Below, in pieces: positions 23,555 through 63,660 of a stretch of 64,000 bases of DNA (position 1 is its first letter; every line of letters starts with the position of its first letter). This DNA comes from an uncultured candidate division Zixibacteria bacterium (GTDB lineage Bacteria > Zixibacteria > MSB-5A5 > UBA10806). The notes below the pieces were generated by a model, which saw only the letters and a program-made list of their open reading frames with translations, ran no database searches and was not told where the DNA came from. A program made the translations under genes and the position numbers. The stretch covers positions 96,001 through 160,000 of the forward strand of contig CAWFQL010000017.1 of NCBI GenBank assembly GCA_963817915.1. Direction: 5' to 3'.

Positions 23555-23561
23555 GATTGGC

Positions 23562-24017: not shown

Positions 24018-24032
24018 CACCCGATAAATAAT

Positions 24033-24638: not shown

Positions 24639-24673
24639 TTTTTTTCGATAAATTCGAATCTTAGGAGGCAATA

Positions 24674-26083: not shown

Positions 26084-26284
26084 ATTCGATGAATTTTGGA
26101 ATTGATGGAAGTTTTTAATCAGGGTACTTTGAAAGATTGATTTGAAAGAGTTTTTGCCATCCTATCTGGGATTTCGCGATTTCGGATTTAACCTCAGCGA
26201 ACCCTCGCATACCCAGCTTTAAAATGGTGGATTTATTTTAAGGGCAAATAATAGTGAATTTTGTATTTATGAATAAGGAGTAAC

Positions 26285-27916: not shown

Positions 27917-27929
27917 GGATGGATGAAAT

Positions 27930-28538: not shown

Positions 28539-29071
28539 GGCATTGGCTGCCCTGGCGGCAGCCGCGCTGGTACTTTTTATCGGATTTGCCCTGATCAAAG
28601 TCTATTTGTTAAATCCCACGGATGGACAAGTTTCTGAAGAGCCACAGGCGGCTACATTGGATGCCAACGCGACTTTGAAGAGCACCATAGATTCCCTTGA
28701 ATTATTCTGGGAAAACCGGCAGGCTTATGTTTTTAGCGTTATCGATGATCCGTTGTATCTTCCTCGAGTGATAAAAGATTACACTTTGGTTTCAGGCACC
28801 AAGCAGGAAGCCGAGGAAGAAGAGAATATCAGGTTGACTGCGACAGTGGTTGATTCCAATCCCAAGGCGATTATCAAATATAATGGCAAAAGCTATGTGG
28901 TTAGAGTCGGCGATTGGCTCGGCAATGTTTACAAAGTAGAAAGTATTGAAAAGAAACAGGTGGTGCTTGGATCATGGAGGCAATAAAAAAATCCTGATGA
29001 ACAAGCCACTTCAAAATGAAGGTTCTGATTATTCCACTAATGGTGATGACCCCGGGTTATCCAATTATTAG
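28516..29071 (+). CDS. PilP/GspC-like protein; C-terminus shifted by an extra base near 28968
   Basis: N-terminal TM, DPL, AII...YVVRVGD...V..I; the annotated frame stops at 28986 but the +1 frame continues DHGGNKKIL...SNY* to 29071. Confidence 0.6.
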
Positions 29072-29110
29072 CTGGGCGGATTTTCCTATATGAATATTAA
29101 GGAGGATATT

Positions 29111-30611: not shown

Positions 30612-30655
30612 GGTTGTTTGGTTTGAAGCCGGGCTACCTTTTAAAGGAGGAAATT

Positions 30656-33487: not shown

Positions 33488-33499
33488 GGATATAGAAGT

Positions 33500-35203: not shown

Positions 35204-35279
35204 AAGGATTTTTTGTTGTGCTGAATATGTTGGTTTGTTTTGGTACCAAGATAGGCAGGATTGACCAGAAAGGATTAAA

Positions 35280-47157: not shown

Positions 47158-48019
47158 TGTCGAATTCATAATTATCAAGATTCTCCTCTTTGTACTAAAT
47201 CTCGTGCCTTATAAAATCGCTCTGCGCTTTGGCGATTTTTTCGGCATGATGGCGTTTTCGGTTTTCCGATTCCGCCGAAAAGTGACATTGGAAAATCTTG
47301 AGAAATCATTCGGGCCGAAATATACTATCAGTCAATATAGAAAAATTGGCTCCCGAACTTATCGCAACATTGTAAAAAGCATTATCGAATTCGGACTTTT
47401 CCCATCGTTAAAAAAGAAAAATCTATCGGAATTGATTTCTATCGAAGGGCAGGAGCATCTACAAAAATTGAAAAGCGACGGCAAAGGCGCTGTTCTTGTC
47501 ACCGGTCATTTCGGAAGTTGGGAGCTTTTGGGCGCCTTTATTTCGCAAAATGGCTGGCCGATTGATTATCTTGTCGGTGAGCAGCACAATCTCAAGGTCA
47601 ATGAACTGATGAATTCTCACCGCCAGATGTATGGCATCGGGCTGATCGAAATGGGTGTTGCCGCGCGCGGAGTGATCAAGGCGATAAGGGCCGGCAGGAT
47701 GGTTGCGATGCTTTCGGATCAGGACGCGGGTTCCGATGGTGTCATAGTGCAGTTTATGGGACGGCCGGCATCGACTCCCAAAGGTCCTGCGGCGTTCGCC
47801 TTAAAAACAGCGACACCAATAATATTCGGATGCATAGTCAGGGGAAATGGAATGCATAAAGTAATAATCAAGCCGCCTTTGGTTATGGAACCATCCGGAA
47901 ATAAAGACGACGATATAAAGACAATTACTCAGGCCTACACATCGCTTTTGGAGAAATTCATAATCGAAAATCCCGATCATTGGTTCTGGCCTCATCGCAG
48001 GTGGAAATCGACCTCATGA
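47126..48019 (+). CDS. Lipid A biosynthesis acyltransferase (LpxL/HtrB family)
   Basis: GHFGSWE, DQD, FMGRPA, W.W.HRRWK. Confidence 0.88.
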   Translation: MGITTKKIRHNVEFIIIKILLFVLNLVPYKIALRFGDFFGMMAFSVFRFRRKVTLENLEKSFGPKYTISQYRKIGSRTYRNIVKSIIEFGLFPSLKKKNLSELISIEGQEHLQKLKSDGKGAVLVTGHFGSWELLGAFISQNGWPIDYLVGEQHNLKVNELMNSHRQMYGIGLIEMGVAARGVIKAIRAGRMVAMLSDQDAGSDGVIVQFMGRPASTPKGPAAFALKTATPIIFGCIVRGNGMHKVIIKPPLVMEPSGNKDDDIKTITQAYTSLLEKFIIENPDHWFWPHRRWKSTS

Positions 48020-50352
48020 GCGAACCGCAATATTCGCTTTTCAACGGGCGGCCTGCCCTTGTGGCGTTATTGTCCCTTATTTCAGGGATTCTCTTCGGCC
48101 GGATTATCAATGTCTCATTTTTTATCCCATTTATTTTAGTAATAACCATTCTATTTATTATCACTATTTTATACCTCAAGGGCCTTTCGAGGCCCGCCGG
48201 CTGGATTGCCATTCTGGTTATAATTGCCTTAGGGTGGTTCAGGGCGGAGGTCGCTGATGGGCCATTTCCACCAAATCATATTGAGAATCTCGCAGTCATG
48301 GGAGGACGAGCTGAAATTATTGGAAAGGTCGTAAGTGAACCCGATCAAAGGGCTGACAAGACATATCTGATTATCGAAATTGACTCCGTTGTGATAAAAT
48401 CACTCAGGACACCGTCGATGGGTCGCCTGCGAGCAGGCATAAATGAATATACGAATGAGTTTGGCTATGGCGATCATCTAAAGCTTAGCGGCTATTTGTA
48501 TAAACCATCGGGTCCGCGTAATCCGGGCGCATTTGATTACAAAATGTATCTTGAGGCGAAAGAGATATTCGCCGCGCTTTCCGTAAGTTCTACAAATGAT
48601 ATCAATGTGATCAACGCCCAAAAGTCATTTTTGTCAGTGGTCATTTCTCCATTACGTAAATTTCTGATCGACAAGACGGTCAGGTATTTGCCTGAATCTT
48701 CGGCCGCCATTCTTTCCGGTTTTATTTTAGGTGAACGGCGTAACATGCCGGCAGAATATGAGAGATATTTTAGAGACACTGGCACCATGCACCTCATGGC
48801 AGTTTCAGGCTCCAATGTCGGAGTCGTGATTGCATTTTTTGCTCTGCCGCTGACACTGCTGCGTCTTCCCAGACCCCTTAAGGCTATCATATTAGCTGCT
48901 GTCGTTATCTTTTTTGCAATACTGACACGGCTGGAACCTTCAGTGATCAGAGCCTCGATAATGGCGTTGGTTGGGATAGTCGCCTATGGATGGATGAGAA
49001 AACCTGATTATGTAAACCTGCTTGGATTTGCCGGATTGATAATGCTTCTATGGATGCCGCTTCAGCTTTTCGATGTCGGCTTGCAATTATCTTTTGCGGC
49101 GACATTCGGAATTTTATACGCGACTTCGCCGCTTTTCAAGAAACTGTCGGCGATTCGCATTCTAAAAATTAAATATATTTTTTGGGCTGTCGCGGCACTT
49201 ATTACAACTCTGGTTGCTCAAGCGGCGGTGATGCCGTTAATGGGGCATTACTTTAATAATTTTACTCTTGTCGGCATAATCGCTAATCTTCCAATTGGCA
49301 TCCTCGCATCATGCTCTACGATATTAGGCATGATTTTTTATCTTGTATCCTGGTGCGGATACTGGCCGGCATTTCTAATTTCGATTCCGCTGAAATGGAT
49401 ATTAAGCCTGACCGCTATCACACTAAAATTCTTCGCGTCACTTCCATTGGCCAATATTAAGATTCCATCATCGGGATGGATAATGATGATTTCAATTTGG
49501 ATTGTTTTGTATTTGATATTTGAATTATTCATAAGGCATCGCCTGAGCAGGACAGCATTATTCGCAGGGCTGATCACCTTGAATATTTTTATTTGGGAGA
49601 AATTATCTGAACCGATAAAAGATTGGCGTCTTGAATTTCTCGATTTGGGGAGAAATCATGCCTGGATATTTTCCGGCCATGATCAACCAACTATGGGCTG
49701 TTACGATGATTATCATTCGCAGGGCGACGCGGAAAGCATGATACCGTTAATTATTAATAATTATTCCGGTAAAATGGATATTCTAATTTCCTCAACGCCG
49801 GATTCTAAAGATACAAAGGAAATTGCCTCGGAATTTGGAGCTCGACTAATTTTACCTGATAGCATTATAAATAATTTGGACTCTTTGGACGTAACCTATT
49901 TAAATGAAACGAATTACGGAAAATATTATACTCTTTCATCTAATGTTAAGATTGTATGGCCTAAATCCGATAATATAATTGAGGGAGATAAACCTCATTC
50001 TTATGTTCAAATTGATGTCAGTGATGGCGTCCTGATTCTTGCGGGCTGGGCAGGAATTGGCGAATTCGAGGGTGCTGAAATGAATAATAGGGTTAAAATG
50101 CTCGAACTGTCCTGGAGCAGCTATGCGCAGACTGCCTGCCTTGATATAATCGATAAACTGAAACCAGAGATGGTTGTGTTTTCCCCCGATCGTTATTCAG
50201 TCAGAACCCCGTATAGTAGAAATGAGTTGACTCATTCGGCTGGCCGCACATTTTCAACATCGATTTTTGGCGCCATGGAAATATCCAATACTGATTCTAC
50301 ATTGAGAATCGGCTCAATGAAGAATGGCGAAATTGAGGGGGAATCAAATTGA
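48016..50352 (+). CDS. comEC: ComEC/Rec2 competence DNA-uptake protein
   Basis: OB-like domain with NPGAFDY, GTMHLMAVSGSN, PSVIRA, GLQLSF; degenerate MBL domain; ATGA overlap with the upstream gene. Confidence 0.88.
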   Translation: MSEPQYSLFNGRPALVALLSLISGILFGRIINVSFFIPFILVITILFIITILYLKGLSRPAGWIAILVIIALGWFRAEVADGPFPPNHIENLAVMGGRAEIIGKVVSEPDQRADKTYLIIEIDSVVIKSLRTPSMGRLRAGINEYTNEFGYGDHLKLSGYLYKPSGPRNPGAFDYKMYLEAKEIFAALSVSSTNDINVINAQKSFLSVVISPLRKFLIDKTVRYLPESSAAILSGFILGERRNMPAEYERYFRDTGTMHLMAVSGSNVGVVIAFFALPLTLLRLPRPLKAIILAAVVIFFAILTRLEPSVIRASIMALVGIVAYGWMRKPDYVNLLGFAGLIMLLWMPLQLFDVGLQLSFAATFGILYATSPLFKKLSAIRILKIKYIFWAVAALITTLVAQAAVMPLMGHYFNNFTLVGIIANLPIGILASCSTILGMIFYLVSWCGYWPAFLISIPLKWILSLTAITLKFFASLPLANIKIPSSGWIMMISIWIVLYLIFELFIRHRLSRTALFAGLITLNIFIWEKLSEPIKDWRLEFLDLGRNHAWIFSGHDQPTMGCYDDYHSQGDAESMIPLIINNYSGKMDILISSTPDSKDTKEIASEFGARLILPDSIINNLDSLDVTYLNETNYGKYYTLSSNVKIVWPKSDNIIEGDKPHSYVQIDVSDGVLILAGWAGIGEFEGAEMNNRVKMLELSWSSYAQTACLDIIDKLKPEMVVFSPDRYSVRTPYSRNELTHSAGRTFSTSIFGAMEISNTDSTLRIGSMKNGEIEGESN

Positions 50353-51515
50353 GCTTCGCCGGCAATCTTAACACGGTCTCGATGGCCGATATACTCCAGC
50401 TTATATTTTCATCGAAAATGTCAGGAGCAATGTTTGTTACCAAGAGTCAGTCTCGCCGCGAAATTTATTTTAAGTCGGGCCAGTTGATTTATGCCTGCTC
50501 CTCTGATGAAGAAAATTTATTCGGAAATCTTCTGCTTAAAAAAGGCAAAATATCGAAAGTCGAATTAGATCAGGTATTGAGGAGTCAGAAGGAAGGCAAA
50601 AAGATCGGCGCCATGCTTATCGAACGGAATCTTTTTACGCGTGACGAAATCATCGGCGCGCTAAAAATGCAGATTGAAGAAATCGTATATGGTCTGTTCG
50701 GATGGAAGGATGGCACATTCGAATTCATCGAGGGCAAAACCCCTCCGCCCGAAACAATTCAGACCGAACTCAATCCTATTAATATTATCATGGAAGGCAC
50801 CCGCCGTATCGACGAATGGGAACAGCTAAAGAAAGTACTGCCACCCGATGATTCATTTATCGAACTCGTACGCGAGCCAGCCTTGAGATCAGAAGAAATG
50901 AAGCTTTCGAAGAATGAATTCATGGTGCTTGCCGAAATTGGCCCGGGCAAACAGATTTCGAAAATTGTGAACGATAGCGTACTGGATCATTTCCTGACAT
51001 CGAAAGCCCTGGCTAATCTGCTTCAACTAGGCCTTGTCAAGGCGAGCAAGATGGTCGTGAAAGACAAGACTTCTGAGCAGGATGAGAAAGCTTTAGTAGA
51101 AGTCCTGGCACAAGTTTATATCAATAATCTGAGATATATCTTTGACAGTCTAAAAGAGAAACTAGGCTCGAAAGGTGAAAAAGTAATTTTCGAAACTTTC
51201 CAGGAAAATAAAATATTCTATCCGATCTTAAGCCAGAGTTTCGCCGGCAAGGACGGTCAGGTAAATTTCGATCTGTTTCTCGATCTTTACAAGAAGCTTC
51301 CGCCGGAAGCTCGTATCTGGCGCATCGTATCGAATTTTAATTCTCTGATTATCGATTATCTGGCGGCGGTAGAAAAAAATCTTGGCCCAAAAGTCTATAA
51401 ACGAGTACTTTCCGAAATTAAGATAAATATTCAAAATGATATCAATAAGAACAGGCAATTAGCGAATAAATATGGACTCGAAGAAGAATTTTCCCGAGTC
51501 CTAAAAGATAAATAG
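50349..51515 (+). CDS. DUF4388 (PatA-N-like) domain protein
   Basis: FAGNL..VSMADILQLI...SG, LFGWKDGTFEF, IIMEGTRRIDEW. Confidence 0.85.
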   Translation: MSFAGNLNTVSMADILQLIFSSKMSGAMFVTKSQSRREIYFKSGQLIYACSSDEENLFGNLLLKKGKISKVELDQVLRSQKEGKKIGAMLIERNLFTRDEIIGALKMQIEEIVYGLFGWKDGTFEFIEGKTPPPETIQTELNPINIIMEGTRRIDEWEQLKKVLPPDDSFIELVREPALRSEEMKLSKNEFMVLAEIGPGKQISKIVNDSVLDHFLTSKALANLLQLGLVKASKMVVKDKTSEQDEKALVEVLAQVYINNLRYIFDSLKEKLGSKGEKVIFETFQENKIFYPILSQSFAGKDGQVNFDLFLDLYKKLPPEARIWRIVSNFNSLIIDYLAAVEKNLGPKVYKRVLSEIKINIQNDINKNRQLANKYGLEEEFSRVLKDK

Positions 51516-51566
51516 AAGCGCTCTTCCCGCATCAGTAAACTTGTTGGATTAGAAAGCGGTCATTAA

Positions 51567-51866
51567 ATGGTTGCTCAGCTATATCCGGTAATAGAGACAG
51601 CATTACTGATAATTTTTTCGGTTGCGTGCATGATATTGACGTTGTCGATATTCAGGTCACTGCGAGGCGGCAGCCTCGGCAACCCCTGGATTTTTATTGT
51701 CGGCGGTTTTGCGCTTGGAGCCCTTTATGGCATTGTTCATTTTCTGGAAACTTTGAATATACTTTTCGAACAATATGACCTTAGGCTTTTTTATCTTGTT
51801 GTAGGCTCATTCGCATTGATTCTGATGTTAATTGGCTTTTGGGTATACAAACGCGGCCTTAGATAA
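51567..51866 (+). CDS. Small 3-TM membrane protein
   Basis: Three hydrophobic helices; same strand within the locus. Confidence 0.6.
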   Translation: MVAQLYPVIETALLIIFSVACMILTLSIFRSLRGGSLGNPWIFIVGGFALGALYGIVHFLETLNILFEQYDLRLFYLVVGSFALILMLIGFWVYKRGLR

Positions 51867-51884
51867 CACGGCAAGATAAATTCC

Positions 51885-51911
51885 TAAACATATACGCGCG
51901 ACTGTCGATAA
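51885..51911 (+). promoter_or_regulatory. Sigma28 (FliA/WhiG)-like promoter
   Basis: TAAA-N15-GTCGATAA compared with the consensus TAAA-N15-GCCGATAA. Confidence 0.55.
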
Positions 51912-51945
51912 TCTAAATAGTTGTTTTGACTCAAGAGGTTAGTTT

Positions 51946-52803
51946 ATGTTCGATTTTGCCGAATTAGACGATCGCATCGCTAAATGCGAGAAAATACTGG
52001 CTGCCGATCAAAACAGCCAGATATTTGCCGCTTTGGCCGAAGCCTATAGGAAAAAGGGTGATGTTAAAAGGGCCCAGGATGTTTGTATCCAGGGTCTTAA
52101 ATCTCACCCGAATTATTCGTCTGCCAGAATTGTATTGGCCAAAATACTTATGGATAGAGAAAATTTCGACGCTGCCTGGGAAGAATTAAAAAAGGCCATC
52201 GGCTCGTCTGGCAGGACTCGGACGATAGATCTTCTCGAATCCGAAATATTGATTCATAAAGGCCAGCAATCGTCGGCGCGGGCAATCCTCGAAAAGCTCT
52301 TTCTTACCGATCCTGAAAATGACACCGTTAGGAATCTGCTCGCCATTGCCTCGGATGAAAAACAGACGTATGGTTCTATTAATGCGCGAATGCCAGAAAG
52401 ATCGATAAATGCTTTCGAGCCCAAACGCACCACGCTTACTGAAGCAGTTGGAATTATCAAGGTCCTTCCGCGTGTCATGGGAGTGGCGATTGTTGGCCAT
52501 GACGGAATGGTTCTGGAAGGACGTTTTGACAGCGCGTTATCAAAAGAAGACATAGCGGCATTATCAAAAAGCATTTTCAATAGTGTCACTTCGAATGGCC
52601 AAAGATGTAATCTCGGCATGACCGCTGAAATTCTGATAGAAACTTGCAGTACTAAAATATGGATCATCAGGAAGGTAAAATTCCTTGTGGTCATCCTGAC
52701 GCGCGATGATGTCAGTTTGGGATCATTAAGGCTGAAGGTCGCCGAGATATTTCAACAACTGGAGAATTCTGAAAGCAGGAAAAATCAGGAGGAGGTCGAG
52801 TGA
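51946..52803 (+). CDS. TPR + roadblock/LC7 domain protein
   Basis: N-terminal TPRs (FAALAEAYRKKG...HPNY.SAR..LAK), C-terminal roadblock (GVAIVGHDGMV...SLGSLRL). Confidence 0.78.
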   Translation: MFDFAELDDRIAKCEKILAADQNSQIFAALAEAYRKKGDVKRAQDVCIQGLKSHPNYSSARIVLAKILMDRENFDAAWEELKKAIGSSGRTRTIDLLESEILIHKGQQSSARAILEKLFLTDPENDTVRNLLAIASDEKQTYGSINARMPERSINAFEPKRTTLTEAVGIIKVLPRVMGVAIVGHDGMVLEGRFDSALSKEDIAALSKSIFNSVTSNGQRCNLGMTAEILIETCSTKIWIIRKVKFLVVILTRDDVSLGSLRLKVAEIFQQLENSESRKNQEEVE

Positions 52804-53246
52804 AGAGCACTAAGATCATAAATAGATTTCAATCTTCGGTCGATTATCTGACTGAATATTCCGGAGTGATCGGGGCGGTGGTCTGCGACGACGAAGGTCT
52901 GATCATCGCCAAGGGAGGCGCTGAAGCATTCGATGCTGAAAGTTATGCGGCTCTGGGGCTGACCCTGGTCACGGACGTCGGCCTCAAATTAAAGCGTTTG
53001 ATCGGTCCCGAAATTGAATACGTTGTTTTGAAAACCGGAAGACACTGGTTGACTATCGCCAAATCCTCCAACATGTATCTAATTGTTGCCGCCGACAGAC
53101 ATGCCGACGATCTTCTGAATATCAGGATAACAAGGTCTATAGAAATGATAACTTCATTTGTAAAAGAAAAATATCCCTCTACGTCAGCTACGCAAAAACT
53201 GACTACGAGTTACATCGCAAAGAATATGGAGGATGTTCATGTATGA
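52800..53246 (+). CDS. Roadblock/LC7 domain protein
   Basis: GVIGAVVCDDEGLII...ESYAAL. Confidence 0.78.
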   Translation: MKSTKIINRFQSSVDYLTEYSGVIGAVVCDDEGLIIAKGGAEAFDAESYAALGLTLVTDVGLKLKRLIGPEIEYVVLKTGRHWLTIAKSSNMYLIVAADRHADDLLNIRITRSIEMITSFVKEKYPSTSATQKLTTSYIAKNMEDVHV

Positions 53247-53577
53247 TATTTTAGGCGAATTGAACAAGACATCCGGCATCAAGGGTTCGATGCTGGTGGG
53301 AGCGGACGGGATTATAATTGCCGCCGATTTGGATTCAAATCTCGAAGATGAGACCGTTGGCGCGTTGGCCGCGTCGATCATGTCAAATGTCAATAAGGCG
53401 CTCGAGAGGATGAAACAGCATGTCCCCGAGAGGATTACTATCGAAGCCGAACAGGGCAAAATATTCCTAAATGATGCCGGGGTCGGAATACTCGCGGTGG
53501 TAACTGAACCTAATGTTAATGTAGGATTGATAAGATTAGAAATTAAAAATGCGATTGCTCAAATAAAGAATCAATAA
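53239..53577 (+). CDS. Roadblock/LC7 domain protein (MglC-like)
   Basis: GIKGSMLVGADGIIIA...VNVGLIRL; GGAGG RBS favours ATG 53239. Confidence 0.82.
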   Translation: MYDILGELNKTSGIKGSMLVGADGIIIAADLDSNLEDETVGALAASIMSNVNKALERMKQHVPERITIEAEQGKIFLNDAGVGILAVVTEPNVNVGLIRLEIKNAIAQIKNQ

Positions 53578-53595
53578 ATAAAGGGCGCACTAATT

Positions 53596-54846
53596 ATGGT
53601 ATCAATAAACTACGCCTTTAAAGAAATAATATCAAAAATTGTCTACTACGGTCCGGGACTTTCGGGCAAGACGACAAATTTGCAGTACGTCTTCAAGAAA
53701 GTGCCGCAGGATACTAGAGGAGAATTGATAAGCCTCGCGACCGATGCGGACAGAACTTTGTATTTCGATTTTTTACCGGTTAATGTCGGTACTATCCAGG
53801 GATTCGCGACCAAATTCCAGCTTTATACCGTTCCCGGCCAGGTCTATTACAACGCCACTCGAAAGCTCGTGCTTCGAGGCGTCGACGGGCTTGTTTTTGT
53901 TGCCGACAGTCAGAATGAAAAAATGGATGAAAATGTAGAATCCATTCAGAATTTAAAAGACAATTTGGAAGAATATGGATACGACATCAAGCAGATTCCT
54001 ATGGTAATACAGTATAATAAGAGGGATTTACCTAATATTGTCTCAATCGAAGAACTCCAAAGGATTTTGAATCCAATGGGAATTCCCTACCACGAGGCGG
54101 TCGCTTCCACGGGCGAAGGCGTGTTTAAAACACTTAAGGCCATCAGCAAGATGGTACTTGATCAGGTCCGTTCGAAAAGAATGGAACCTGGACGTATCGC
54201 GCCAAAACCTGAGCCGGTTGCTGTTGGAGCCGCGTCAAAGCAAGTTCAAAGCGCTCCGGTAATGCCTGAACCCGCTCCGCAGATTGTTAAGCCTTCTGCT
54301 CCCAAAGCCGAGGCGGTTAGGGCCGCGGCTATGCAGACTCTTGTCGAGGAAAAAATAAGTGTTCCTCAAAGCACGGAAATGGGAATTCCCATTCATGAAA
54401 TAGAAGACAATGATGAACCATCAGCGCCGCCGGCTATTGTCTCGGAAGCCGAGGTGCATACTACTGTAGTGGTTTCCGATAACCCGGAAAAACAAAACGG
54501 TGAACAAACCGCTCAAAAGAAAGACGACCTTGAAGAAACAACCGAAAGGTCAATTCTAAAGGACGAAAGCCCGTCTTCGGAAATTCAACCGGAGGTGGCG
54601 GCGGAAACGAAGTCTATAAAAAAAAGTAAATACGTATTAGACGATATACCAGATGATGTTTTGTATGGCAAAAAGGCTCAGAAGGAAAATTTCGATGAAG
54701 AGGCGACCCAGATATCTGAAATAGTGATAAAGAATCCATTGCCTCTCGGAAAACCACAGATGGCAGAAAGCCGGAAAATAAGGGCGAAAAAGGGAAAATT
54801 CAGCCTTTTCAAATGGCTTAAAAAATCTGACGATGAAGAAGAATAA
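53596..54846 (+). CDS. mglA: Small Ras-like GTPase MglA with long C-terminal extension
   Basis: KIVYYGPGLSGKTTN, DRTLYFDFLP, LYTVPGQV, DGLVFVADS, NKRDL. Confidence 0.93.
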   Translation: MVSINYAFKEIISKIVYYGPGLSGKTTNLQYVFKKVPQDTRGELISLATDADRTLYFDFLPVNVGTIQGFATKFQLYTVPGQVYYNATRKLVLRGVDGLVFVADSQNEKMDENVESIQNLKDNLEEYGYDIKQIPMVIQYNKRDLPNIVSIEELQRILNPMGIPYHEAVASTGEGVFKTLKAISKMVLDQVRSKRMEPGRIAPKPEPVAVGAASKQVQSAPVMPEPAPQIVKPSAPKAEAVRAAAMQTLVEEKISVPQSTEMGIPIHEIEDNDEPSAPPAIVSEAEVHTTVVVSDNPEKQNGEQTAQKKDDLEETTERSILKDESPSSEIQPEVAAETKSIKKSKYVLDDIPDDVLYGKKAQKENFDEEATQISEIVIKNPLPLGKPQMAESRKIRAKKGKFSLFKWLKKSDDEEE

Positions 54847-54869
54847 TCGGCGATAAAAGGAGGTATAAA

Positions 54870-55355
54870 TTGGCTCAAGAACAACACGTCCTTTATGAGG
54901 ATCAGATCAAACAGATCGACAAAGCGCTGAACAGGATTATTAAGGAATCCGAGGCGAAATGCGCCCTGCTTGTAGATAAAGACGGTCATTTGATAACCCG
55001 ACAGGGCTTTACACATACGCTTGATACTACAGCTCTTGCCGCGCTTTTAGCTGGTAGCTTTGCGTCAACCAAGGAAATAGCCCGACTAGTCGGAGAGCCT
55101 GAATTTTCAGTGCTTTTCCATCAGGGGAAGAAAGATCATATTCATATTTCATTGATCGGCGAGAGGACAATTCTGGTTGTCATTTTCGATGATCGCACGA
55201 CAATCGGAATGATTCGCCTTTACGCTAAAGAAATCAGCGAAACCCTCAAGGAAATTCTCGAAAGCGAGAATAAAGGCAATCGATCTGACGTTGTCCTAGG
55301 TCAGGAATTTTCTGATTCGGCCGACGCCAAACTAAATGATATATTTCAGGATTAG
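54870..55355 (+). CDS. mglB: MglB, roadblock-fold GAP for MglA
   Basis: LLVDKDGHLI, LDTTALAALLAG, EFSVLFHQG, FDDRTTIGMIRL, C-terminal helix LNDIF. Confidence 0.9.
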   Translation: MAQEQHVLYEDQIKQIDKALNRIIKESEAKCALLVDKDGHLITRQGFTHTLDTTALAALLAGSFASTKEIARLVGEPEFSVLFHQGKKDHIHISLIGERTILVVIFDDRTTIGMIRLYAKEISETLKEILESENKGNRSDVVLGQEFSDSADAKLNDIFQD

Positions 55356-55400
55356 GCTGGCCGAGGATCTTTCACATAGTCTAAAGGGGTAGGAATCAAG

Positions 55401-57095
55401 ATGGCTCTCGAACTCGGCCGAATGCTGGTTAAAGCCGGCAAAATCACCGAAGATCAACTTCAGAAAGCGTTGGAAATGCAGAAGGATGGCGCCGGCAAGC
55501 TCGGCGAAATCCTTGTGAAGCTTGGTGCTGTCCCCGACGAAAATATTATTTCTGAATTCATAGGCAAACAACTTAATATCGGAGCCATTCGATTAAATGA
55601 TATCGAGCTCAATCCCGATATCGTCAAGCTGATTCCGCCTGATATCGCCAGAAAATTCAACGTAATAGCTATTTCAAAATTCGGGAAGACCCTGGTTGTA
55701 GCTATTTCCGATCCAAACAATATCTATGTTCTTGACGCCATCAAGTTTATTACCGGATGTAATATTCAGCCTGTAATTTCGCCGGAAAATACAATTCAAA
55801 AAGCTATTGAAATTTATTACGATGATTCCGGCGGCCTGAATGAAATCATAAAAGGGATGAGCAGCGAACTAGAGGTAGTCGAAGAAACCGAAGAGGATTT
55901 GCCCTCGGAGCAGGATCTGCAGTCTCAGGTGCAGGAAAAGCCTCTGGTCAAGCTGGTCGACGGTATTATCGCTGATGCTATTAAAAAAGGCGCTTCGGAT
56001 ATTCATTTCGAATGTTACGAAAAAAGGGTCAGAGTTCGCTTCAGATTGGATGGTGCATTACAAGAAATGGCTCCTATTCCATTCAAGTATCGCGCCGCAA
56101 TTATCTCACGTATGAAAATCATGGCCGACCTCGATATTTCCGAACGTCGTTTACCGCAAGACGGAAGAATTAAGGTTAAATTGGGCGAACGAACCATCGA
56201 CCTTCGAGTATCTGTCCTGCCAACGATTTTCGGCGAAAAGATAGTAATGAGAATTCTGGATCCTAAATCCTTGATGGTCGATATGACGAAACTTGGATTT
56301 CCAGAATTTGCCCTAAAGAATTTTTCAAAAGCAATCAGCTTGCCATATGGCATGATTCTGGTCACGGGCCCTACCGGTTCGGGAAAGACTACTACGCTTT
56401 ATTCGGCTCTTAAAACATTGAATACTATCGATGTCAATATCATGACCGCCGAAGATCCTGTCGAGTTTAATTTCGATGGTATCAATCAGGTTTTAGTCAA
56501 GACAGATATCGGATTGACATTCGCGGCGGCATTGAGATCATTTTTACGTCAGGACCCGGATATCGTAATGGTCGGTGAAATTCGAGACGGCGAGACTGCG
56601 GATATCGCGATAAAGGCCGCGCTTACAGGCCATTTGGTCTTTTCGACCCTGCATACGAACGATGCTCCGTCGACGATCAATAGGCTCGTAGACATGGGAG
56701 TCCCAAGCTATTTGGTGGCTGCCTCGACAAAATTGATAATGGCTCAGAGAATGATTCGAAAGATATGCACACAATGTCGTCATGAAATTCCTTTGACCGA
56801 TCAAATGAAGGAGGCTCTTGGCCTGGCGCCCGAAGAAGCCCAGACGATGAAAATATTCGAAGGCAAAGGCTGCAGCAATTGTAATGATACCGGATATTCG
56901 GGTCGAACAGGTCTATTCGAAGTCATGCCGATTACTCCTCAAATAGAAAAGATGATAGTTCAGGGTGCGTCCACCGCTGAAATTCGTGCGCAGGCGGTAG
57001 CTGAGGGTATGATGACTTTAAGGGATGCCGGTCTGGAAAAATTGCGCAACGGTATTTCGACAATTGAAGAAGTAGTTGCCGAGACTGCTTTATAA
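55401..57095 (+). CDS. pilB: Type IVa pilus extension ATPase PilB (copy 2)
   Basis: MshEN-like N-terminus, GPTGSGKT, TAEDPVE, FLRQDPD, CTQC/CSNC. Confidence 0.95.
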   Translation: MALELGRMLVKAGKITEDQLQKALEMQKDGAGKLGEILVKLGAVPDENIISEFIGKQLNIGAIRLNDIELNPDIVKLIPPDIARKFNVIAISKFGKTLVVAISDPNNIYVLDAIKFITGCNIQPVISPENTIQKAIEIYYDDSGGLNEIIKGMSSELEVVEETEEDLPSEQDLQSQVQEKPLVKLVDGIIADAIKKGASDIHFECYEKRVRVRFRLDGALQEMAPIPFKYRAAIISRMKIMADLDISERRLPQDGRIKVKLGERTIDLRVSVLPTIFGEKIVMRILDPKSLMVDMTKLGFPEFALKNFSKAISLPYGMILVTGPTGSGKTTTLYSALKTLNTIDVNIMTAEDPVEFNFDGINQVLVKTDIGLTFAAALRSFLRQDPDIVMVGEIRDGETADIAIKAALTGHLVFSTLHTNDAPSTINRLVDMGVPSYLVAASTKLIMAQRMIRKICTQCRHEIPLTDQMKEALGLAPEEAQTMKIFEGKGCSNCNDTGYSGRTGLFEVMPITPQIEKMIVQGASTAEIRAQAVAEGMMTLRDAGLEKLRNGISTIEEVVAETAL

Positions 57096-57148
57096 ATTAC
57101 AGTATTGTAAAATAATGTCGATAAATTGAATAAAAGGGGTATAAATTT

Positions 57149-58246
57149 ATGGTGACCTTGCGCGAATTGCTGGATTTGATGGTAAAAAGGAATAGTTCCG
57201 ATTTACATATTACTGTCGGAGCGCCTCCGGTATTGAGAATTGACGGCAAGCTCACTAAGACCGAATATGATGTTTTGTCTCCTGAAGATACCAAGAAGCT
57301 CGCTTATTCAATTTTAAACGAGAGACAAAGACAGAAATTCGAAGAGAATTCGGAGCTGGATTTATCCTTTGGCATTGAGCAGCTTTCGCGCTTCCGTTGC
57401 AATGTCTTTATGCAGCGTGGCAATGTTGCAATGGCTTTAAGGCAAATTCCCCATAAAGTTACGAGTTTCGAAGAGCTGGGATTGCCGGATGTCGTTCAAA
57501 AATTCGCCGACTTGCCGCGAGGGCTGGTGTTGGTAACGGGACCTACAGGCTCCGGTAAATCTACGACATTGGCTGCTCTGATAGACAAAATAAATACCGA
57601 GCGCCATATGCATATAATAACGGTCGAAGACCCGATTGAATATCTTCACAGGCACAAAAATTGCCTGATCAATCAAAGAGAAGTCCATTCGGATACAAAG
57701 AGCTTTGCCGCGTCGTTGAAATACGCGTTGAGGCAGGACCCCGATGTTGTGTTGATCGGTGAAATGAGAGATCTGGAGACGATGGAAGCCGCTCTGACCA
57801 TATCCGAAACCGGGCATTTGGCATTCGCGACATTACACACAAATTCCGCCGCCGAGGCAATCAACCGAATTGTGGATGTCTTCCCTACCAATCAGCAAGA
57901 ACAGGTTCGAGTACAGTTGTCATTTGTGCTACAGGGCATACTTTCGCAACAACTCATACCTAAGATTGGCGGAGGAAGAGTCATGGCAATGGAAATATTG
58001 GTCGCAACTCCGGCGTTACGGGCTGTAATCCGAGATGATAAGATTCACCAGATTTATTCATTGTTGCAGGCCGGACAAAAATTCGGTATGAGGACAATGA
58101 ACATGTCATTATTTGAGCTTTATAATAAGAAGAAAATATCACTAAACGATGCCATTACAAGATCGTCCAATATTCAGGAATTCGAGGAAATGATTGGACG
58201 TTCCGAATCACCGGATGGCACCAGAAAAATGCTGCAGGCCAAATAG
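57149..58246 (+). CDS. pilT: Retraction ATPase PilT (copy 2)
   Basis: SSDLHI, GPTGSGKS, LRQDPD, TLHTN, ALRAVIRD. Confidence 0.92.
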   Translation: MVTLRELLDLMVKRNSSDLHITVGAPPVLRIDGKLTKTEYDVLSPEDTKKLAYSILNERQRQKFEENSELDLSFGIEQLSRFRCNVFMQRGNVAMALRQIPHKVTSFEELGLPDVVQKFADLPRGLVLVTGPTGSGKSTTLAALIDKINTERHMHIITVEDPIEYLHRHKNCLINQREVHSDTKSFAASLKYALRQDPDVVLIGEMRDLETMEAALTISETGHLAFATLHTNSAAEAINRIVDVFPTNQQEQVRVQLSFVLQGILSQQLIPKIGGGRVMAMEILVATPALRAVIRDDKIHQIYSLLQAGQKFGMRTMNMSLFELYNKKKISLNDAITRSSNIQEFEEMIGRSESPDGTRKMLQAK

Positions 58247-58257
58247 CGAGGTAAAGC

Positions 58258-59457
58258 ATGCCTGTATACGAATATAAAGGCAAGTCCTTGGGTGGGAAGC
58301 AGGTTCAGGGCGAGCTCAAGGCAAAGAACAGGGCCGAACTTGAAAGGCTCTTGCGCGGCAATAAAATCCTGCTGACCAGTGTAACTAAACAGCCGTCGCA
58401 GATAAAAATCAAATTCGGGACCGGTGTCAAAAAAATCGACATCTCTCGTTTTACACGCCAATTTGCCACCATGATCTCGGCAGGTTTGCCAATGGTGCAA
58501 TGTCTCGAAATTCTCTCGACCCAGATGGAATCACCGGAATTTCGCAAGATCATCAACGAGGTCAAGGAGGCGGTGCAGTCCGGCTCAACATTATCCGAGG
58601 CTCTCGGCAAGCACAAGAAGGTATTCGATGATCTTTATGTAAACATGGTCGAAGCCGGTGAAGTCGGCGGCGCATTGGATACCATACTTATCAGGCTGGC
58701 TCAGTACAGAGAAAAGGCCGACAAACTTGCCAGAAAAGTCAAAGGCGCGTTAGTATATCCTATCGTGGTTGCGGTAGTGGCTACAGGCGTCACATTCGCG
58801 ATGTTGAGATTTATCGTGCCAACATTCGCCAAGATGTTTGGCGGACTGGGAGCGGAACTCCCCACGCCGACCAAAGTTGTGCTTGGTATTTCGACTTTCC
58901 TCCAGGCTAATACGGTTACATTGATAATTGCCATCTTTATCCTAATCGCCGCATTCCAGGTATTTTTAAGACAGCCCAAGGGAAGGCTGATGTTCGATCA
59001 GTTTAAGTTGAGAATGCCGATGTTAGGCGACCTGATTCGCAAAAGCGCCATTTCAAGATTCACCCGCACACTAGCGACGCTATTATCATCGGGAGTTTCA
59101 ATTCTCGATGCTTTGAATATAACGGCCAAGACCGCTGGAAATATGGTGCTTCATAACGCTATCAGAAAATCGATGTTGTCTATTGCGGAGGGCGAGACGA
59201 TTACTCAGCCTTTGAAGGATTCCGGCGTATTCCCGCCTATGGTTACACAGATGATTTCAGTAGGAGAGAAGACCGGCGGCCTGGATGACATGTTGGCCAA
59301 GATTGCCGATTTCTATGATGAGGAAGTCGATGCTGCCGTCGCGGCATTGACATCTATTATCGAGCCCGTAATAATTGTTTTCATGGGCGCCATTATCGGC
59401 GGTATCTTGATTGCAATGTATCTGCCAATGTTCGATATTATCGGCAAGATACAATAA
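58258..59457 (+). CDS. pilC: Platform protein PilC (copy 2)
   Basis: FTRQFATMISAG, AGEVGG.LD, ALVYP, GEKTG.LD, IEP, MYLPMF. Confidence 0.95.
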   Translation: MPVYEYKGKSLGGKQVQGELKAKNRAELERLLRGNKILLTSVTKQPSQIKIKFGTGVKKIDISRFTRQFATMISAGLPMVQCLEILSTQMESPEFRKIINEVKEAVQSGSTLSEALGKHKKVFDDLYVNMVEAGEVGGALDTILIRLAQYREKADKLARKVKGALVYPIVVAVVATGVTFAMLRFIVPTFAKMFGGLGAELPTPTKVVLGISTFLQANTVTLIIAIFILIAAFQVFLRQPKGRLMFDQFKLRMPMLGDLIRKSAISRFTRTLATLLSSGVSILDALNITAKTAGNMVLHNAIRKSMLSIAEGETITQPLKDSGVFPPMVTQMISVGEKTGGLDDMLAKIADFYDEEVDAAVAALTSIIEPVIIVFMGAIIGGILIAMYLPMFDIIGKIQ

Positions 59458-59523: not shown

Positions 59524-61221
59524 ATGAATGACAAAATAAAAGATCTTCAGTCGGCCGCAATCGGCAAAAAACCGTGGTTTCTGGGATTAAGAATCCTCAC
59601 GACCCTTTTTCTGCTGGGTTCAAGCCTTGTCTTCCTAAATCCTATAACATTCAATTACGCCCTGCTGATAATATACAGCTCATTGACCCTGATACTCCTA
59701 TTGCATAACCTGATCGGAATCCGATATTCGGAATCATTTGTCCGATCCTTGCTGATAGTTCAAATTGCCTGCGAATTGATCATAGAAGGGTTATTGGTCA
59801 ATCATGTCGGCGCCAATTTTTCGCCATTCATCTTATTCTTCCTGATTACGATAGTTACTGCCGGACTTTTATTCCATTTGATGGGCTCCATTATAGTTGC
59901 GACATTGGCAGGACTACTCTATTCAATGCCGATATTCTTCGATTTGTCCGCAATATTCCAGGGCTTATTGGAAGCCACAAGGCTTACTGGTATGGGAGTC
60001 TCATCCGATGAGGCATTCTATACGGTATTCTTGCATCTATGCCTTTTCTATTTCTTCGCCTTTATTTCTGGATATATGACCGAAAGACTGTTTTTCACAT
60101 CGCAGGAGCTCAATAAAGTCCGTTTGGAAACCAATGAAATTATCGAACAGATGATTTCCGGTCTCATGACAGTCGATGCTAATGGCCGCATAATCTATTT
60201 TAATAATGCGGCAGGTGAAATTTTTGGCATCAACCCCGAATCCGCAAGGGGCGGCAATATCAATGACATCTTTTCGGATGGCCTCAAAGATTTCCTTATA
60301 AAGATTCGAATCGCTCTCGAGACGGGTCAACATGAGACTAGGGGTGAGGTTCAGGTGCGTTTGCCCGATAGAGGCATAATTCCAATCGGTCTGTCTTTTT
60401 CGCCATTGAAAGATGGCAGCGGCATTTTGAGAGGTGTCATTGCAATTTTTCAGGACCTGAGTGAGGCTAAGAAATTGGATGCTCGAATAAGGGCGTCGGA
60501 GAGATTGGCCGCCGTTGGACGATTAGCCGCGGGTATAGCGCATGAAATCAGGAATCCATTGGCTTCGATTTCCGGATCAGTAGAAGTTTTAAAAGATGAG
60601 CTACAGCCGACCGGTGACAATCTTCGCCTGATGCAATTAATTCTAAAAGAATCCTCTCGATTGAATACAATTCTGACTGATTTTTTGAATTTTTCTCGTG
60701 TCTCCAAAACATCATCGAGCAAGTGCGATCTTGTTTCCGTGATTTCCGAAGTTATCGGACTGGTTAAGGTCAATCATCAGGTAAATGATTCCATTCTTAT
60801 CTCATCAAATATTCATAGGCAGCCGATTATTGTCTCCGGCAGCGAAGATCAATTGAAGCAAATTCTCTGGAATCTGATTCTCAATTCAGCACAGGCATTG
60901 GGTGCTAGTGGACAGATTAAAATTTCAACAGCCGATAGTCTGGAAATCGGCAGGCCGAAAATGGTTAAATTGATTGTATCTGATACCGGATCCGGCATTC
61001 CCGAAGGGTTGATGGATAAGATTTTCGATCCCTTCTTCTCCACAAAGCAAGATGGCACCGGCCTGGGTCTTTCTATAGTGGCCAGAATTATCGATTGTCT
61101 TGATGGCAAAATCGAGGTGGAATCATCCTCCGATAATGGGACTAAATTCTCTATATTTCTCCCCTTAGCGGCATCTAATGAAAAGAAATCTATTGTACTG
61201 CAAGAAGTTGGCTCGGGATAG
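59524..61221 (+). CDS. pilS: PilS-like sensor histidine kinase (multi-TM, PAS, HisKA, HATPase)
   Basis: ~6 TM helices with FSPF loop, PAS, AHEIRNPL, N/G1/F/G2 boxes; follows pilBTC. Confidence 0.8.
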   Translation: MNDKIKDLQSAAIGKKPWFLGLRILTTLFLLGSSLVFLNPITFNYALLIIYSSLTLILLLHNLIGIRYSESFVRSLLIVQIACELIIEGLLVNHVGANFSPFILFFLITIVTAGLLFHLMGSIIVATLAGLLYSMPIFFDLSAIFQGLLEATRLTGMGVSSDEAFYTVFLHLCLFYFFAFISGYMTERLFFTSQELNKVRLETNEIIEQMISGLMTVDANGRIIYFNNAAGEIFGINPESARGGNINDIFSDGLKDFLIKIRIALETGQHETRGEVQVRLPDRGIIPIGLSFSPLKDGSGILRGVIAIFQDLSEAKKLDARIRASERLAAVGRLAAGIAHEIRNPLASISGSVEVLKDELQPTGDNLRLMQLILKESSRLNTILTDFLNFSRVSKTSSSKCDLVSVISEVIGLVKVNHQVNDSILISSNIHRQPIIVSGSEDQLKQILWNLILNSAQALGASGQIKISTADSLEIGRPKMVKLIVSDTGSGIPEGLMDKIFDPFFSTKQDGTGLGLSIVARIIDCLDGKIEVESSSDNGTKFSIFLPLAASNEKKSIVLQEVGSG

Positions 61222-61384: not shown

Positions 61385-62012
61385 ATGGCCAAAGACTTGA
61401 CAGCCAGGCAAAGAGAAATCTTCGAATTTATCAGGGAAATGGTACGAGGCAAGGGCAGACCGCCATCGATCAGGGAGATCGGCGAACAGTTTAAAATCCG
61501 TTCTACAAATGGTGTCAGAGCGGTACTGGAAGCGTTGGAACGAAAAGGGTATATCAAAAGAGACCGTTACACTTCGCGCGGTATTGAGCTTCTAAAAGAG
61601 ACTGTGGACAGCCTGACGTCGCAACGGTTCCGCGAGATATTCTGGGTTGGACGGGTTGCCGCCGGTTCGCCTATCTGGGCAGAGGAAAATATCGAAGGCA
61701 GTTTCTTGCTCGATAGTGAATTTATCCCCGGCGAGGAGGTTTTCTCGCTCAAGGTTCAGGGGAATTCGATGATCGATGCCGGTATTTTCGATGGCGATTT
61801 CGTGCTTGTTAAAAAGCAGCAGTCGGCCGATCCCGGCGATGTCATCGTGGCGCAAATCGGCGATGAGGCCACTGTCAAAAAGTTCTTTCCTGAGAAACGG
61901 CGAATCCGTCTCGAACCAGCCAATCCCGAATACGGCCCGATAATCGTGGAAAAGGAAACCCCAGGCTTTTGCCATTGCGGGCAAGGTCATCGGATTGTTG
62001 AGGAGGATGTGA
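61385..62012 (+). CDS. lexA: SOS repressor LexA; C-terminus shifted by an extra T at 61967-61970
   Basis: LTARQ, PPSIREI, GRVAAG cleavage site, GNSM (Ser), ATVK (Lys); removing one T restores AIAGKVIGLLRRM*. Confidence 0.93.
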
Positions 62013-62205
62013 GGCAGTTTGATGATGTTGGAAAATAAAAATGTATCGAAAAAAAACCTGCAAATTTGATCTTTCTTATTTGATTTGACGAGCCCAGAGT
62101 TTTTGGATCTTTGAATGCGATCCGGAAAAGACCGCCTATTAAAGTTGGTGAAGTGGTGGATTTGAAAATAACATAATTAAATGTTTTTTCAAACCGTTGA
62201 ATTTT

Positions 62206-62454
62206 ATGTACCAGGATATTGAAGAATCGGTGGATGTCATTGTGATCTTTGAGTCGGGGCGAATGCAGCCGCTCAAATTTCGCTGGAATGGACGATCCAT
62301 CAAAATCAAACAGGTCACCGGCTCGTGGAAATCCGATGTCGGCGCCCATAAAATTCGCTACTTCGCGGTGCTCGATAACTCATCCAATTTTTTCCAGCTC
62401 GCTTACGATGAACGCAATACCTCATGGGTTTTGAATAAAATCTGGGTAGAATAG
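62206..62454 (+). CDS. Small DUF6504-like protein resembling the ImuB C-terminal domain
   Basis: P..FRWNGR...I..V...W...YF.V...F.L.YD....W.L pattern; lies between lexA and dinB. Confidence 0.65.
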   Translation: MYQDIEESVDVIVIFESGRMQPLKFRWNGRSIKIKQVTGSWKSDVGAHKIRYFAVLDNSSNFFQLAYDERNTSWVLNKIWVE

Positions 62455-62460
62455 AATATC

Positions 62461-63660
62461 ATGAACGGCGATCAATGGAAAAATAGCAGGGTTATCATGC
62501 ATCTGGATATGGACGCTTTTTTCGCGGCTATCGAGCAAACAATACATCCGGCATTAAGGGGGAAACCGGTAATAATCGGCGGACCGGCGGATTCCAGGGG
62601 AGTGGTCTCAACCTGCTCCTACGAGGCCAGAAATTACGGTATTCATTCGGCAATGCCGATGAAAAAGGCGCATCAGCTTTGTCCCGATGGCATTTATATC
62701 GATACTTCTGGGGATAAATATTCCTACATGTCAGCAGAAGTGATGAAGATTTTAAGAGCTTTCTCACCCATAGTGGAGCCAGTCTCGATAGACGAGTCAT
62801 TTGTTGATATCACGGGGATATGGGAACGATATGGCGGGATGGAAAAGCTGGCTTTTAGCATCAAAGATGAAATCAGACATAGATTGGATTTGACAGCCTC
62901 GATTGGAATAGCCCCCAATCGATTTGTGGCCAAAATGGCGTCGTCATCGAATAAACCTAATGGACTCGTGATAATCCCTCCAGATCAAGTTCAACAATTT
63001 TTATGGGGTCAGCCGGTAGAGCACCTCTGGGGAGTTGGTCCGAAATCGGCAGAAGCGATGAAGAAATATGGTATTAATACAATCAGCGACCTGGCGAAAA
63101 CATCGAAGGCACAGATGAAAAATATGTTCGGTATAGTCGGTGAGGCGCTTATCGGTATGGCTAACGGTAAGGGAGAGGATAAGGTTAGGGCGAGCCACGA
63201 AGAAGGCGATACCAAATCGATGGGGCATGAACACACATTCCATAGAGATACTAAAGACCCCGATAGAATTCTGAGCCTGCTGCTCTATCTGTCTGATAAA
63301 GTAGCCCGTCGCCTTAGATTACACGATTACGAGGGCAGAACAGTCAATCTGAAAATTCGAAAATCTGATTTCAAGTTAGTTACCCGCGCGATAAGCTACA
63401 ATGTCTATATTAATAACGAACAAGAGATATTCAAGGCGGCTAAAAATCTGCTCTTGGAAAATAGATTTCTCGACCATCCGATCAGGCTTATCGGAGTCAA
63501 TATTTCCAATCTCCGGAAACGGCAGGCTGAAAATTACGATGAATATTTGATTGATTATGAACCGGTGAAAAAATCAAAAAAAATCGACGAAGTAATTGAT
63601 AAATTACGAGAAATTCACGGCGAAGAAGCGATAACTTTCGCCGGGACAAAATTGGATTAA
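62461..63660 (+). CDS. dinB: Y-family DNA polymerase (DinB/Pol IV-like)
   Basis: HLDMDAFFA, SYEAR, SIDES, ASIGIA..RFVAKMAS, WGVG, IRLIGV. Confidence 0.93.
   Translation: MNGDQWKNSRVIMHLDMDAFFAAIEQTIHPALRGKPVIIGGPADSRGVVSTCSYEARNYGIHSAMPMKKAHQLCPDGIYIDTSGDKYSYMSAEVMKILRAFSPIVEPVSIDESFVDITGIWERYGGMEKLAFSIKDEIRHRLDLTASIGIAPNRFVAKMASSSNKPNGLVIIPPDQVQQFLWGQPVEHLWGVGPKSAEAMKKYGINTISDLAKTSKAQMKNMFGIVGEALIGMANGKGEDKVRASHEEGDTKSMGHEHTFHRDTKDPDRILSLLLYLSDKVARRLRLHDYEGRTVNLKIRKSDFKLVTRAISYNVYINNEQEIFKAAKNLLLENRFLDHPIRLIGVNISNLRKRQAENYDEYLIDYEPVKKSKKIDEVIDKLREIHGEEAITFAGTKLD

Follow-up and report, generated by a model that had tools for sequence, protein, structure and literature searches.

In a window of 64,000 nucleotides from an uncultured candidate division Zixibacteria bacterium (contig CAWFQL010000017.1), the genes of an MglA/MglB small-GTPase module lie in one row with the motor genes of a type IVa pilus. 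The order, entirely on the plus strand, is comEC-DUF4388(PATAN)-small membrane protein-TPR/roadblock-roadblock-roadblock-mglA-mglB-pilB-pilT-pilC-pilS-like kinase. A first-pass annotation of the window had named ten of these genes between 50349 and 59457, and an open reading frame (ORF) check combined with family profile searches placed all ten at those coordinates, on that strand and with the domains assigned to them. The genes between those limits stand, while the limits themselves had to be widened at both ends, since comEC precedes the row and the PilS-like kinase trails it. Part of the earlier interpretation also held, in that throughout the phylum pilB-pilT-pilC have as their constant neighbour an intact MglA/MglB module that includes four roadblock domains.

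Gene content of the row

The row opens with comEC (47980..50352), encoding a DNA-uptake channel with Competence and DUF4131 domains, which overlaps by 4 nt the gene of a 388-residue DUF4388/PATAN protein (50349..51515; DUF4388 E 2e-33) that is a candidate adaptor to PilB and PilC. A small membrane protein of 99 residues with three hydrophobic segments and no family match (51567..51866) is followed by a TPR-roadblock fusion of 285 residues (51946..52803), with TPRs at residues 1-140, a variable linker and the roadblock at residues ~160-275, and by two stand-alone Robl_LC7 proteins, here called roadblock 1 (52800..53246; 148 residues, soluble in this genome) and roadblock 2 (53233..53577; 114 residues). 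mglA (53596..54846) codes for a group 1 small GTPase of 416 residues, made up of a G domain (residues 1-196) and an acidic, proline-rich tail of ~190 residues; its last 25 codons (54772..54846) specify a basic-aromatic amphipathic motif, a candidate membrane-targeting sequence. The mglB product (54870..55355) is a predicted roadblock GTPase-activating protein whose C-terminal helix region can be aligned to Myxococcus xanthus MglB. The motor genes are pilB, for the extension ATPase with a degenerate MshEN motif (55401..57095; TIGR02538 726.9 bits, cut-off 675.65), pilT, for the retraction ATPase (57149..58246; TIGR01420 502.9 bits, cut-off 319.1), and pilC, for the platform protein (58258..59457; T2SSF match). 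A membrane PAS histidine kinase (59524..61221) begins 66 bp past pilC; from its position, and with no family match behind the label, we call it PilS-like.

The Robl_LC7 match of the TPR protein is weak (18.5 bits, below the cut-off of 23), and it is the fourth roadblock match of the genome. By profile search of the genome (93.9% complete), mglA is present once and there are only four Robl_LC7 matches, all inside the row. The small membrane gene at 51567-51866 begins directly past an in-frame stop and lacks an N-terminal hydrophobic segment of ~22 residues; the proteins of relatives are ~121-140 residues long and have this additional segment.

Spacing and transcription signals

From the TPR gene through pilC, the intergenic distances are -4, -14, 18, 23, 45, 53 and 11 bp, in agreement with the earlier statement that gaps stay below ~55 bp. 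Likewise, no terminator-like site was detected on the plus strand in 50349-59325. Over an 18-kb scan, terminator-like sites occur at chance level (17 versus 18.2 +/- 3.9 expected), and promoter-like sites exceed expectation (54 versus 38.5 +/- 5.9), which does not place a transcript start. The row may be co-transcribed. Inside the end of pilC (59326-59375) there is a terminator-like hairpin together with an 11/12 sigma-70-like site, possibly providing a separate start for the kinase gene.

Conservation of the gene order in Zixibacteria

The MglA G domain was matched by profile search in 38 of 41 related genomes, and a sample of 201 genomes from across the phylum contained mglA in 197 (the window's genome is counted in both). 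The loci of all 37 mglA-positive relatives formed the genome sample for synteny. Automatic neighbour-pair counts, in row order from comEC to the kinase, are 34/35, 34/34, 34/35, 34/35, 34/35, 35/35, 34/35, 34/34, 30/31, 29/29 and 26/27. For a second sample, from metagenomes, roadblock 2 as query gave 258 confirmed loci, of which the best 80 were used; in these, roadblock 2 is followed by mglA in 70/70 cases, mglA by mglB in 51/51, pilB by pilT in 25/28 and pilC directly by the kinase in 18/18 (26/27 in the genome loci). The junction between the GTPase module and the motor, mglB directly followed by pilB, is kept at 34/34 loci from genomes and 44/46 from metagenomes. Conservation of the order in relatives, on which the first-pass proposal depended, is phylum-wide and far beyond chance.

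The complete 12-gene run is present in 19 of the 37 loci, the others being interrupted by contig ends or by the overlap filter. Six of the seven listed order exceptions are artefacts of this filter, with the genes actually in place, and pilS is split in two in L058. True breaks of order occur after pilB in L048, where pilB codes for 493 residues and has other genes next to it, and in L057, which belongs to family f8 and lies outside the pair counts. In this family (L057, L228, L231 and L236) the row stops at pilB and pilT-pilC do not come next, with mglB-pilB still kept.

The genomes compared are kin and hence not independent observations, so the counts show the inheritance of one fixed block and not independent origins. 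This leaves room for gene-order inertia, in which Mgl and pil genes would be mere neighbours in an old block and the GTPase would serve another membrane process. The unrelated genes upstream are indeed co-directional with the row, and their order is also kept in close relatives. However, in family f8 the mglB-pilB link outlasts pilB-pilT, and roadblock genes are found in pil clusters elsewhere, namely mglC after pilMNOPQ in Myxococcota, and a TPR-roadblock gene plus mglC after pilMNOPQ in FCPU426-type genomes. We consider inertia very improbable.

MglA and MglB as a switch

The MglA G domain is closely similar to those of M. xanthus MglA (E 2.2e-80) and Thermus thermophilus MglA (E 2.6e-72). 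The G1 P-loop, an arginine finger adjoining the G2 threonine, TVPGQ and the G4 NKxD are kept in all 36 complete MglA copies. These motifs define group 1 MglA (PMC4316618), and by them the protein is an intact group 1 GTPase. At 416 residues it has about twice the usual length, which the first-pass annotation had passed over, and the single-domain, anchorless form of ~195 residues is not matched; lengths range from 317 to 511 residues in the 36 copies and from 321 to 453 in 46 metagenome copies. Long group 1 proteins as such have been catalogued before (Table S2 of PMC4316618).

MglB aligns to M. xanthus MglB over residues 5-160 (E 1.6e-34) and groups with other MglBs both by hhalign (100%) and in the roadblock tree (support 100/99), which identifies it at the sequence level as a true MglB-clade roadblock with a C-terminal extension. 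In M. xanthus, a K14/R115/K120 surface of MglB is reported to bind MglC (PMC10329633). Only R115 is retained here (31/31); K14 is kept in 5/31 and K120 is replaced by Glu in 30/31. MglA is reported to act on PilB/PilT localisation. The first-pass annotation gave the M. xanthus order as mglB then mglA, and Table S2 of PMC4316618 bears this out.

The C-terminal tail of MglA

Every complete MglA carries a tail of roughly 100-290 residues, hydrophobic-poor and mostly acidic or Pro/Ala-rich, that terminates in a basic-aromatic, MinD-like motif with the consensus KKxKFxLFGWxKK. By a strict criterion on the last 25 residues, fixed before counting (hydrophobic moment >= 0.5, charge >= +3 and at least two Phe/Trp), 18 of 36 tails pass versus 77 of 1966 ORFs of the genome, and 34 of 46 held-out metagenome copies pass as well. 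With a relaxed criterion, picked after counting (moment 0.3, charge +4, two Phe/Trp), all 36 tails pass versus 84/1966 ORFs and 0/21 long MglAs of other lineages; applied unchanged to the held-out metagenome copies, it was passed by 46/46. The MinD anchor is described as a C-terminal amphipathic helix of weak affinity (PMC6803595), and by sequence comparison the MglA tail probably binds the membrane. AlphaFold modelled the tail without a helix at a per-residue confidence (pLDDT) of 40-54, in a model that is poor as a whole (mean 53.5). With the tail unstructured, at low confidence, we infer membrane binding from the motif and not from a structure.

Around the 21 long MglAs in the phylum of genome G208 and five other mglA loci, we found neither pilB/pilC nor such a tail. 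In contrast to the Zixibacteria tail, the C-terminus of most long paralogues in that phylum (L128, L134-L153) is a conserved, alternating hydrophobic segment.

Three extra roadblock domains and the MglC question

In ten of the 12 families sampled, roadblock 1 has an N-terminal membrane domain of 2-4 segments. The domain is present in 14/14 loci outside f1-f2 and in 0/22 loci inside, i.e. in the window's order, and in 42/66 metagenome loci; the protein is soluble in the window's family and its sister family. Roadblock 2 is the most conserved of the three extra roadblocks, and its translation probably starts at the second Met, giving 112 residues as in most relatives. Its D25-G26-I27 are invariant, and the Phe of the F-D-(G)-I surface by which MglC binds MglB is not kept.

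As reference for MglC we used seven Myxococcota roadblocks encoded after pilMNOPQ/aroKB or before aroQ/efp, whose profile matches solved MglC (PDB 7ct3, E 7.8e-37). By hhalign to this reference, roadblock 2 reaches 4%, roadblock 1 26% and the TPR-fused domain 79%, versus 99.3% for the small roadblock of FCPU426-type genomes. Roadblock 2 is nearest to the TPR-fused roadblock domains (99.4-99.5%). A tree built from 71 rows and 131 columns, with no more than 10 rows sampled per group, has several long branches; in it, roadblock 1, roadblock 2 and the TPR-roadblock all fall outside the MglC clade (100/100). Together with the lower hhalign values, this led us to reject MglC orthology for each of them. 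The MglC profile has no match in the window's genome (93.9% complete) at E <= 0.1. A RomR-C motif was not matched there either, and the same motif retrieved four Myxococcota proteins of RomR layout.

A predicted complex of two MglB with two roadblock 2 chains scored 0.56 (best control 0.00), which is weak; at least 93% of the contacts recur between runs and the partner pLDDT is at least 79. Of 157 solved pairs, 116 reached the mark for such predictions, as did 2 of 215 mismatched pairs; among those that reached it, only 18 solved pairs and both mismatches lay at or below 0.60. The model gives weak support for a possible contact between MglB and roadblock 2.

Elsewhere in the window, after a rhomboid-type gene, an ORF at 1604-2692 (plus strand) codes for a 362-residue protein in which a receiver domain devoid of the phospho-acceptor Asp is joined by a long acidic linker to a pair of amphipathic helices at the C-terminus. 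Its layout resembles RomR, its C-terminus matches at just 17%, and its receiver comes out fifth best. Homologues occur in 9 other of 61 genomes of the phylum at E <= 1e-18.

Candidate links to the motor: the TPR-roadblock and PATAN proteins

The first-pass annotation had viewed the TPR-roadblock protein as an SgmX-like adaptor and the DUF4388 protein as a possible cyclic di-GMP (c-di-GMP) input, a wiring in which the former would bring MglA-GTP to PilB and the latter would sense the second messenger. The TPR triads of SgmX are indeed reported to bind MglA-GTP. SgmX, as described, has 1,060 residues and 14 TPRs with a C-terminal MglA-binding triad, and by size and domain description, which is how the two were set apart, a 285-residue protein with N-terminal TPRs and a roadblock is unlike it. 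The fusion is moreover widespread, and in another phylum its homologues mostly lack an accompanying MglA. A scan with distant members yielded 56 loci, 46 of which have the fusion; a roadblock is the next gene in 45 of these and mglA lies within the locus in one. Many come after pilC-pilin-pilD-pilMNOPQ-aroCKB (annotated in L086, elsewhere recognised by size and order). In the phylum of genome G212, the fusion profile matches 33 of 41 genomes (24 via the roadblock end) and MglA is matched in 7, with both in only 5. The fusion thus accompanies pilus genes more than MglA. This speaks against an SgmX-like effector dedicated to the switch, and the assignment is not supported.

The tree puts the fused domain of FCPU426-type genomes beside MglC (95/86) and not with the Zixibacteria fused domain; because of this separation, orthology of the two TPR-roadblock proteins is likely but not established. 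In L086 and L083-L126, genomes mostly without an MglA match, the TPR-roadblock and the MglC orthologue come after pilMNOPQ-aroCKB, and these roadblock proteins may have a GTPase-independent role at the pilus. We also considered whether the gene before mglC in Myxococcota belongs to the same TPR family; none of the five upstream ORFs matched (0/5), although some of these ORFs may be wrong frames in this high-GC DNA. The best Myxococcota TPR matches are mostly proteins of 700-800 residues in which no roadblock neighbour was detected.

The DUF4388 protein is modelled as a PATAN domain with an inserted MshEN-like four-helix unit (residues 55-111) and a helical C-terminal domain; from our own reading of the fold rows, residues ~158-237 may contain a winged-helix-like part. 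NF053729 scores 37.9 bits, just below its cut-off of 38. The insert superposes on 5htl_B with Z 5.8 and a root-mean-square deviation of 2.0 A over 57 residues, a modest match (Z < 8). Foldseek returned no match of the model to the PDB at E <= 0.001, and the best hit of a wider structure search (Z 7.8) is within the range of common helical arrangements. The tandem MshEN motif is RLG...G...LxxxLxxQ, and Arg9 matters for c-di-GMP binding in MshE (PMC5013675). The MshEN fold expected by the first-pass annotation is present, the binding Gly pair is kept in 30/31 and the genome has two GGDEF matches. However, the motif arginines are kept in only 1/31 and 4/31 of the DUF4388 proteins and in 0/31 and 3/31 of the PilB proteins; in the DUF4388 motif the first Gln is kept in 10/31 and the second turn Gly in 7/31. 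With the arginines lost, c-di-GMP input is doubtful, and the complete wiring of SgmX-like adaptor plus c-di-GMP sensor appears distinctly unlikely to us.

A preprint on Synechocystis reports that PATAN (= DUF4388) binds PilB1 and PilC's N-terminal domain (10.1101/2021.06.11.447907). By analogy, the PATAN protein would be the best candidate for the output adaptor to PilB and PilC. SopA, considered as a possible further DUF4388/MshEN protein, has no known domain. At L188:3481-6716 (C16 of the window's genome), a pilT paralogue is coupled to a 716-residue MshEN ... DUF4388 protein.

Other pilus genes and related clusters

The genome encodes a type IVa gene set, with PilB, PilT and PilC in the row and PilMNOPQ, pilins and prepilin genes elsewhere. 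C11:118371-123197 holds pilMNOPQ, and L187 (C11:180788-185583) holds four tandem pilin genes, after which come genes for a probable prepilin peptidase and for a PAS kinase. At 22043-36536 (plus strand) the window contains another complete cluster, for a pilus or for secretion (pilin, pilT, minor pilins, pilM, secretin, Ig-domain protein, pilB/gspE, pilC/gspF), in which the secretin is split over ORFs 29090-29872 and 29943-30611 and is possibly broken or affected by a sequence error. Directly past the kinase gene, 61385-63660 (plus strand) comprises lexA, a DUF6504 gene and a dinB-type polymerase gene, an SOS mutagenesis cassette.

Outside the phylum, the Atlas has long-MglA clusters in Fibrobacterota, Acidobacteriota, Myxococcota and Krumholzibacteriota, and TPR-roadblock clusters in Gemmatimonadota. 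A homologue search with A1 as query gave only close relatives among the best 120 matches. Genome G210 has two clusters, one after cheB (L116:8618-14237) with the order DUF4388-TPR/roadblock/roadblock-mglB-mglA-DnaA-like ATPase-DUF4388 and no pil genes in the stretch, the other (L130) with the order roadblock-mglA-DUF4388-mglB.

Proposed mechanism and biological output

Taken as a whole, the row is a real variant of the MglA/MglB-type IV pilus system that extends across the phylum; it has a roadblock set that is not MglC, and its membrane anchor is probable. We propose, as the reading that we regard as reasonably probable, that it encodes an MglA/MglB switch dedicated to the adjacent type IVa motor. 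A basic amphipathic segment at its C-terminus, carried on a long flexible tether, would hold MglA at the inner membrane. MglB would switch MglA off and, as its M. xanthus counterpart is reported to do, may also reload it. A scaffold could be formed by the three extra roadblock domains, one that places MglB/MglA and substitutes for the RomR-MglC scaffold, being membrane-anchored via one roadblock in most families. The PATAN protein would convey the output to PilB and PilC. The outcome would be control over the place or the timing of pilus extension and retraction, serving surface movement, adhesion and/or uptake of DNA via ComEC.

Several points weigh against this proposal. The second pilB/pilC/pilM cluster and flagella are encoded in the same genome. 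Half of the 36 tails fail the strict criterion, and the structure prediction gives the tail no helix. With neither an MglC orthologue nor a RomR-C motif found, the known pole-selecting feedback is missing. The MglB-roadblock 2 score is weak and may stem from likeness to solved roadblock pairs. The upstream genes of the row include unrelated ones (lipid A acyltransferase, peptidase), so that linkage by itself need not mean function. In addition, we found no account of Zixibacteria cell shape or motility in the literature searched.

The output could also be competence, with the switch timing or placing DNA uptake by pilus and ComEC, unrelated to front-rear motility. comEC lies directly 5' of DUF4388 in 34/35 genome loci and 31/32 metagenome loci, overlapping it here, dprA is present in the genome, and the RomR-C motif and MglC, which M. 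xanthus requires for reversals, were not found. However, in some distant families the comEC-DUF4388 gap widens to 150-194 bp, leaving room for a separate promoter, and comEC and dprA are common in bacteria (dprA was matched in 11 of 14 control genomes). We rate this output as rather unlikely; it is compatible with the dedicated switch in mechanism and differs from it in output.

Going further, the row may be a counterpart of the eukaryotic Ragulator-Rag platform, with a tethered GTPase on membrane-anchored heteromeric roadblocks plus an MglB dimer, patterning without RomR/MglC and PATAN-driven PilB/PilT, all in one operon with a DNA channel. This analogy is speculative and we think it unlikely to hold in full. 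If true, a self-anchored Ras-like GTPase and a membrane-anchored multi-roadblock scaffold would bring bacteria nearer to eukaryotic small-GTPase platforms. Even in M. xanthus, the route of MglA to the pole and its signalling to PilB are not settled: the accessible literature describes no SgmX-PilB interaction and calls polar localisation of MglA not well understood. With switch, scaffolds, adaptor and motor in one row, Zixibacteria offer a short parts list for reconstitution.

Comparison with known systems

Each part of the row has known relatives, and the first-pass description of a candidate undescribed system went too far: earlier catalogues already contain PATAN neighbours and doubled roadblocks, as well as long MglAs and the mglA-mglB order. 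PATAN genes are reported near some group 1 and 5 mglA genes, with group 1 neighbourhoods varying widely, and Fisuc_0226 of Fibrobacter succinogenes is a 313-residue MglA followed by mglB (both PMC4316618). Seven instances are known in which a single group 1 mglA is coupled to two mglB genes (PMC4719450), as are long 'MglA2' proteins (PMC4316618 Table S2; PMC3000849). The Fibrobacter and PATAN neighbourhoods thus share with our row a PATAN gene near group 1 mglA, two roadblocks per mglA, an extended MglA and mglA before mglB, and the F. succinogenes locus may be the same system. The published MglA-PATAN tables, in their accessible part, record no pil genes, TPR-roadblocks or tail motifs and call the extension a domain of unknown function. 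Our literature search, which left subscription papers mostly uncovered, retrieved no paper on the Zixibacteria operon, Zixibacteria MglA or an MglA membrane-targeting tail among the matches listed. What is new, in that we did not find it in print, is the gene link from Mgl to the motor together with the membrane-anchor features.

With M. xanthus the row shares a group 1 MglA (intrinsic arginine finger, TVPGQ), a true MglB, extra roadblocks and type IVa PilB/PilT/PilC. The M. xanthus polarity module consists of MglA, MglB, MglC, RomR/RomX and RomY, with SgmX, FrzS and SopA acting on PilB. By contrast, Zixibacteria have a single row with motor and comEC, mglA first, and an MglA doubled in length with a candidate anchor; none of their three extra roadblock domains belongs to the MglC clade, and no RomR-C motif was found. 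FCPU426/Goldbacteria-type genomes have the same TPR family fused to a roadblock, with a small roadblock next (45/46 loci), beside pilus genes; their small roadblock, unlike those of Zixibacteria, is orthologous to MglC (hhalign 99.3%, tree 100/100), and matches to MglA were mostly lacking. Cyanobacterial PatA-type regulators share the PATAN domain, whereas the Zixibacteria protein lacks a receiver and is linked to a GTPase and not to a chemosensory array. The membrane-targeting sequences of MinD and FtsA are likewise C-terminal basic amphipathic segments on an NTPase, an analogy for which we claim no homology and from which MglA differs in that nucleotide-driven dimerisation is not known for it. 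Finally, the Ragulator-Rag platform gathers several different roadblock domains and a membrane anchor around a small GTPase, again by analogy and with no homology claimed.

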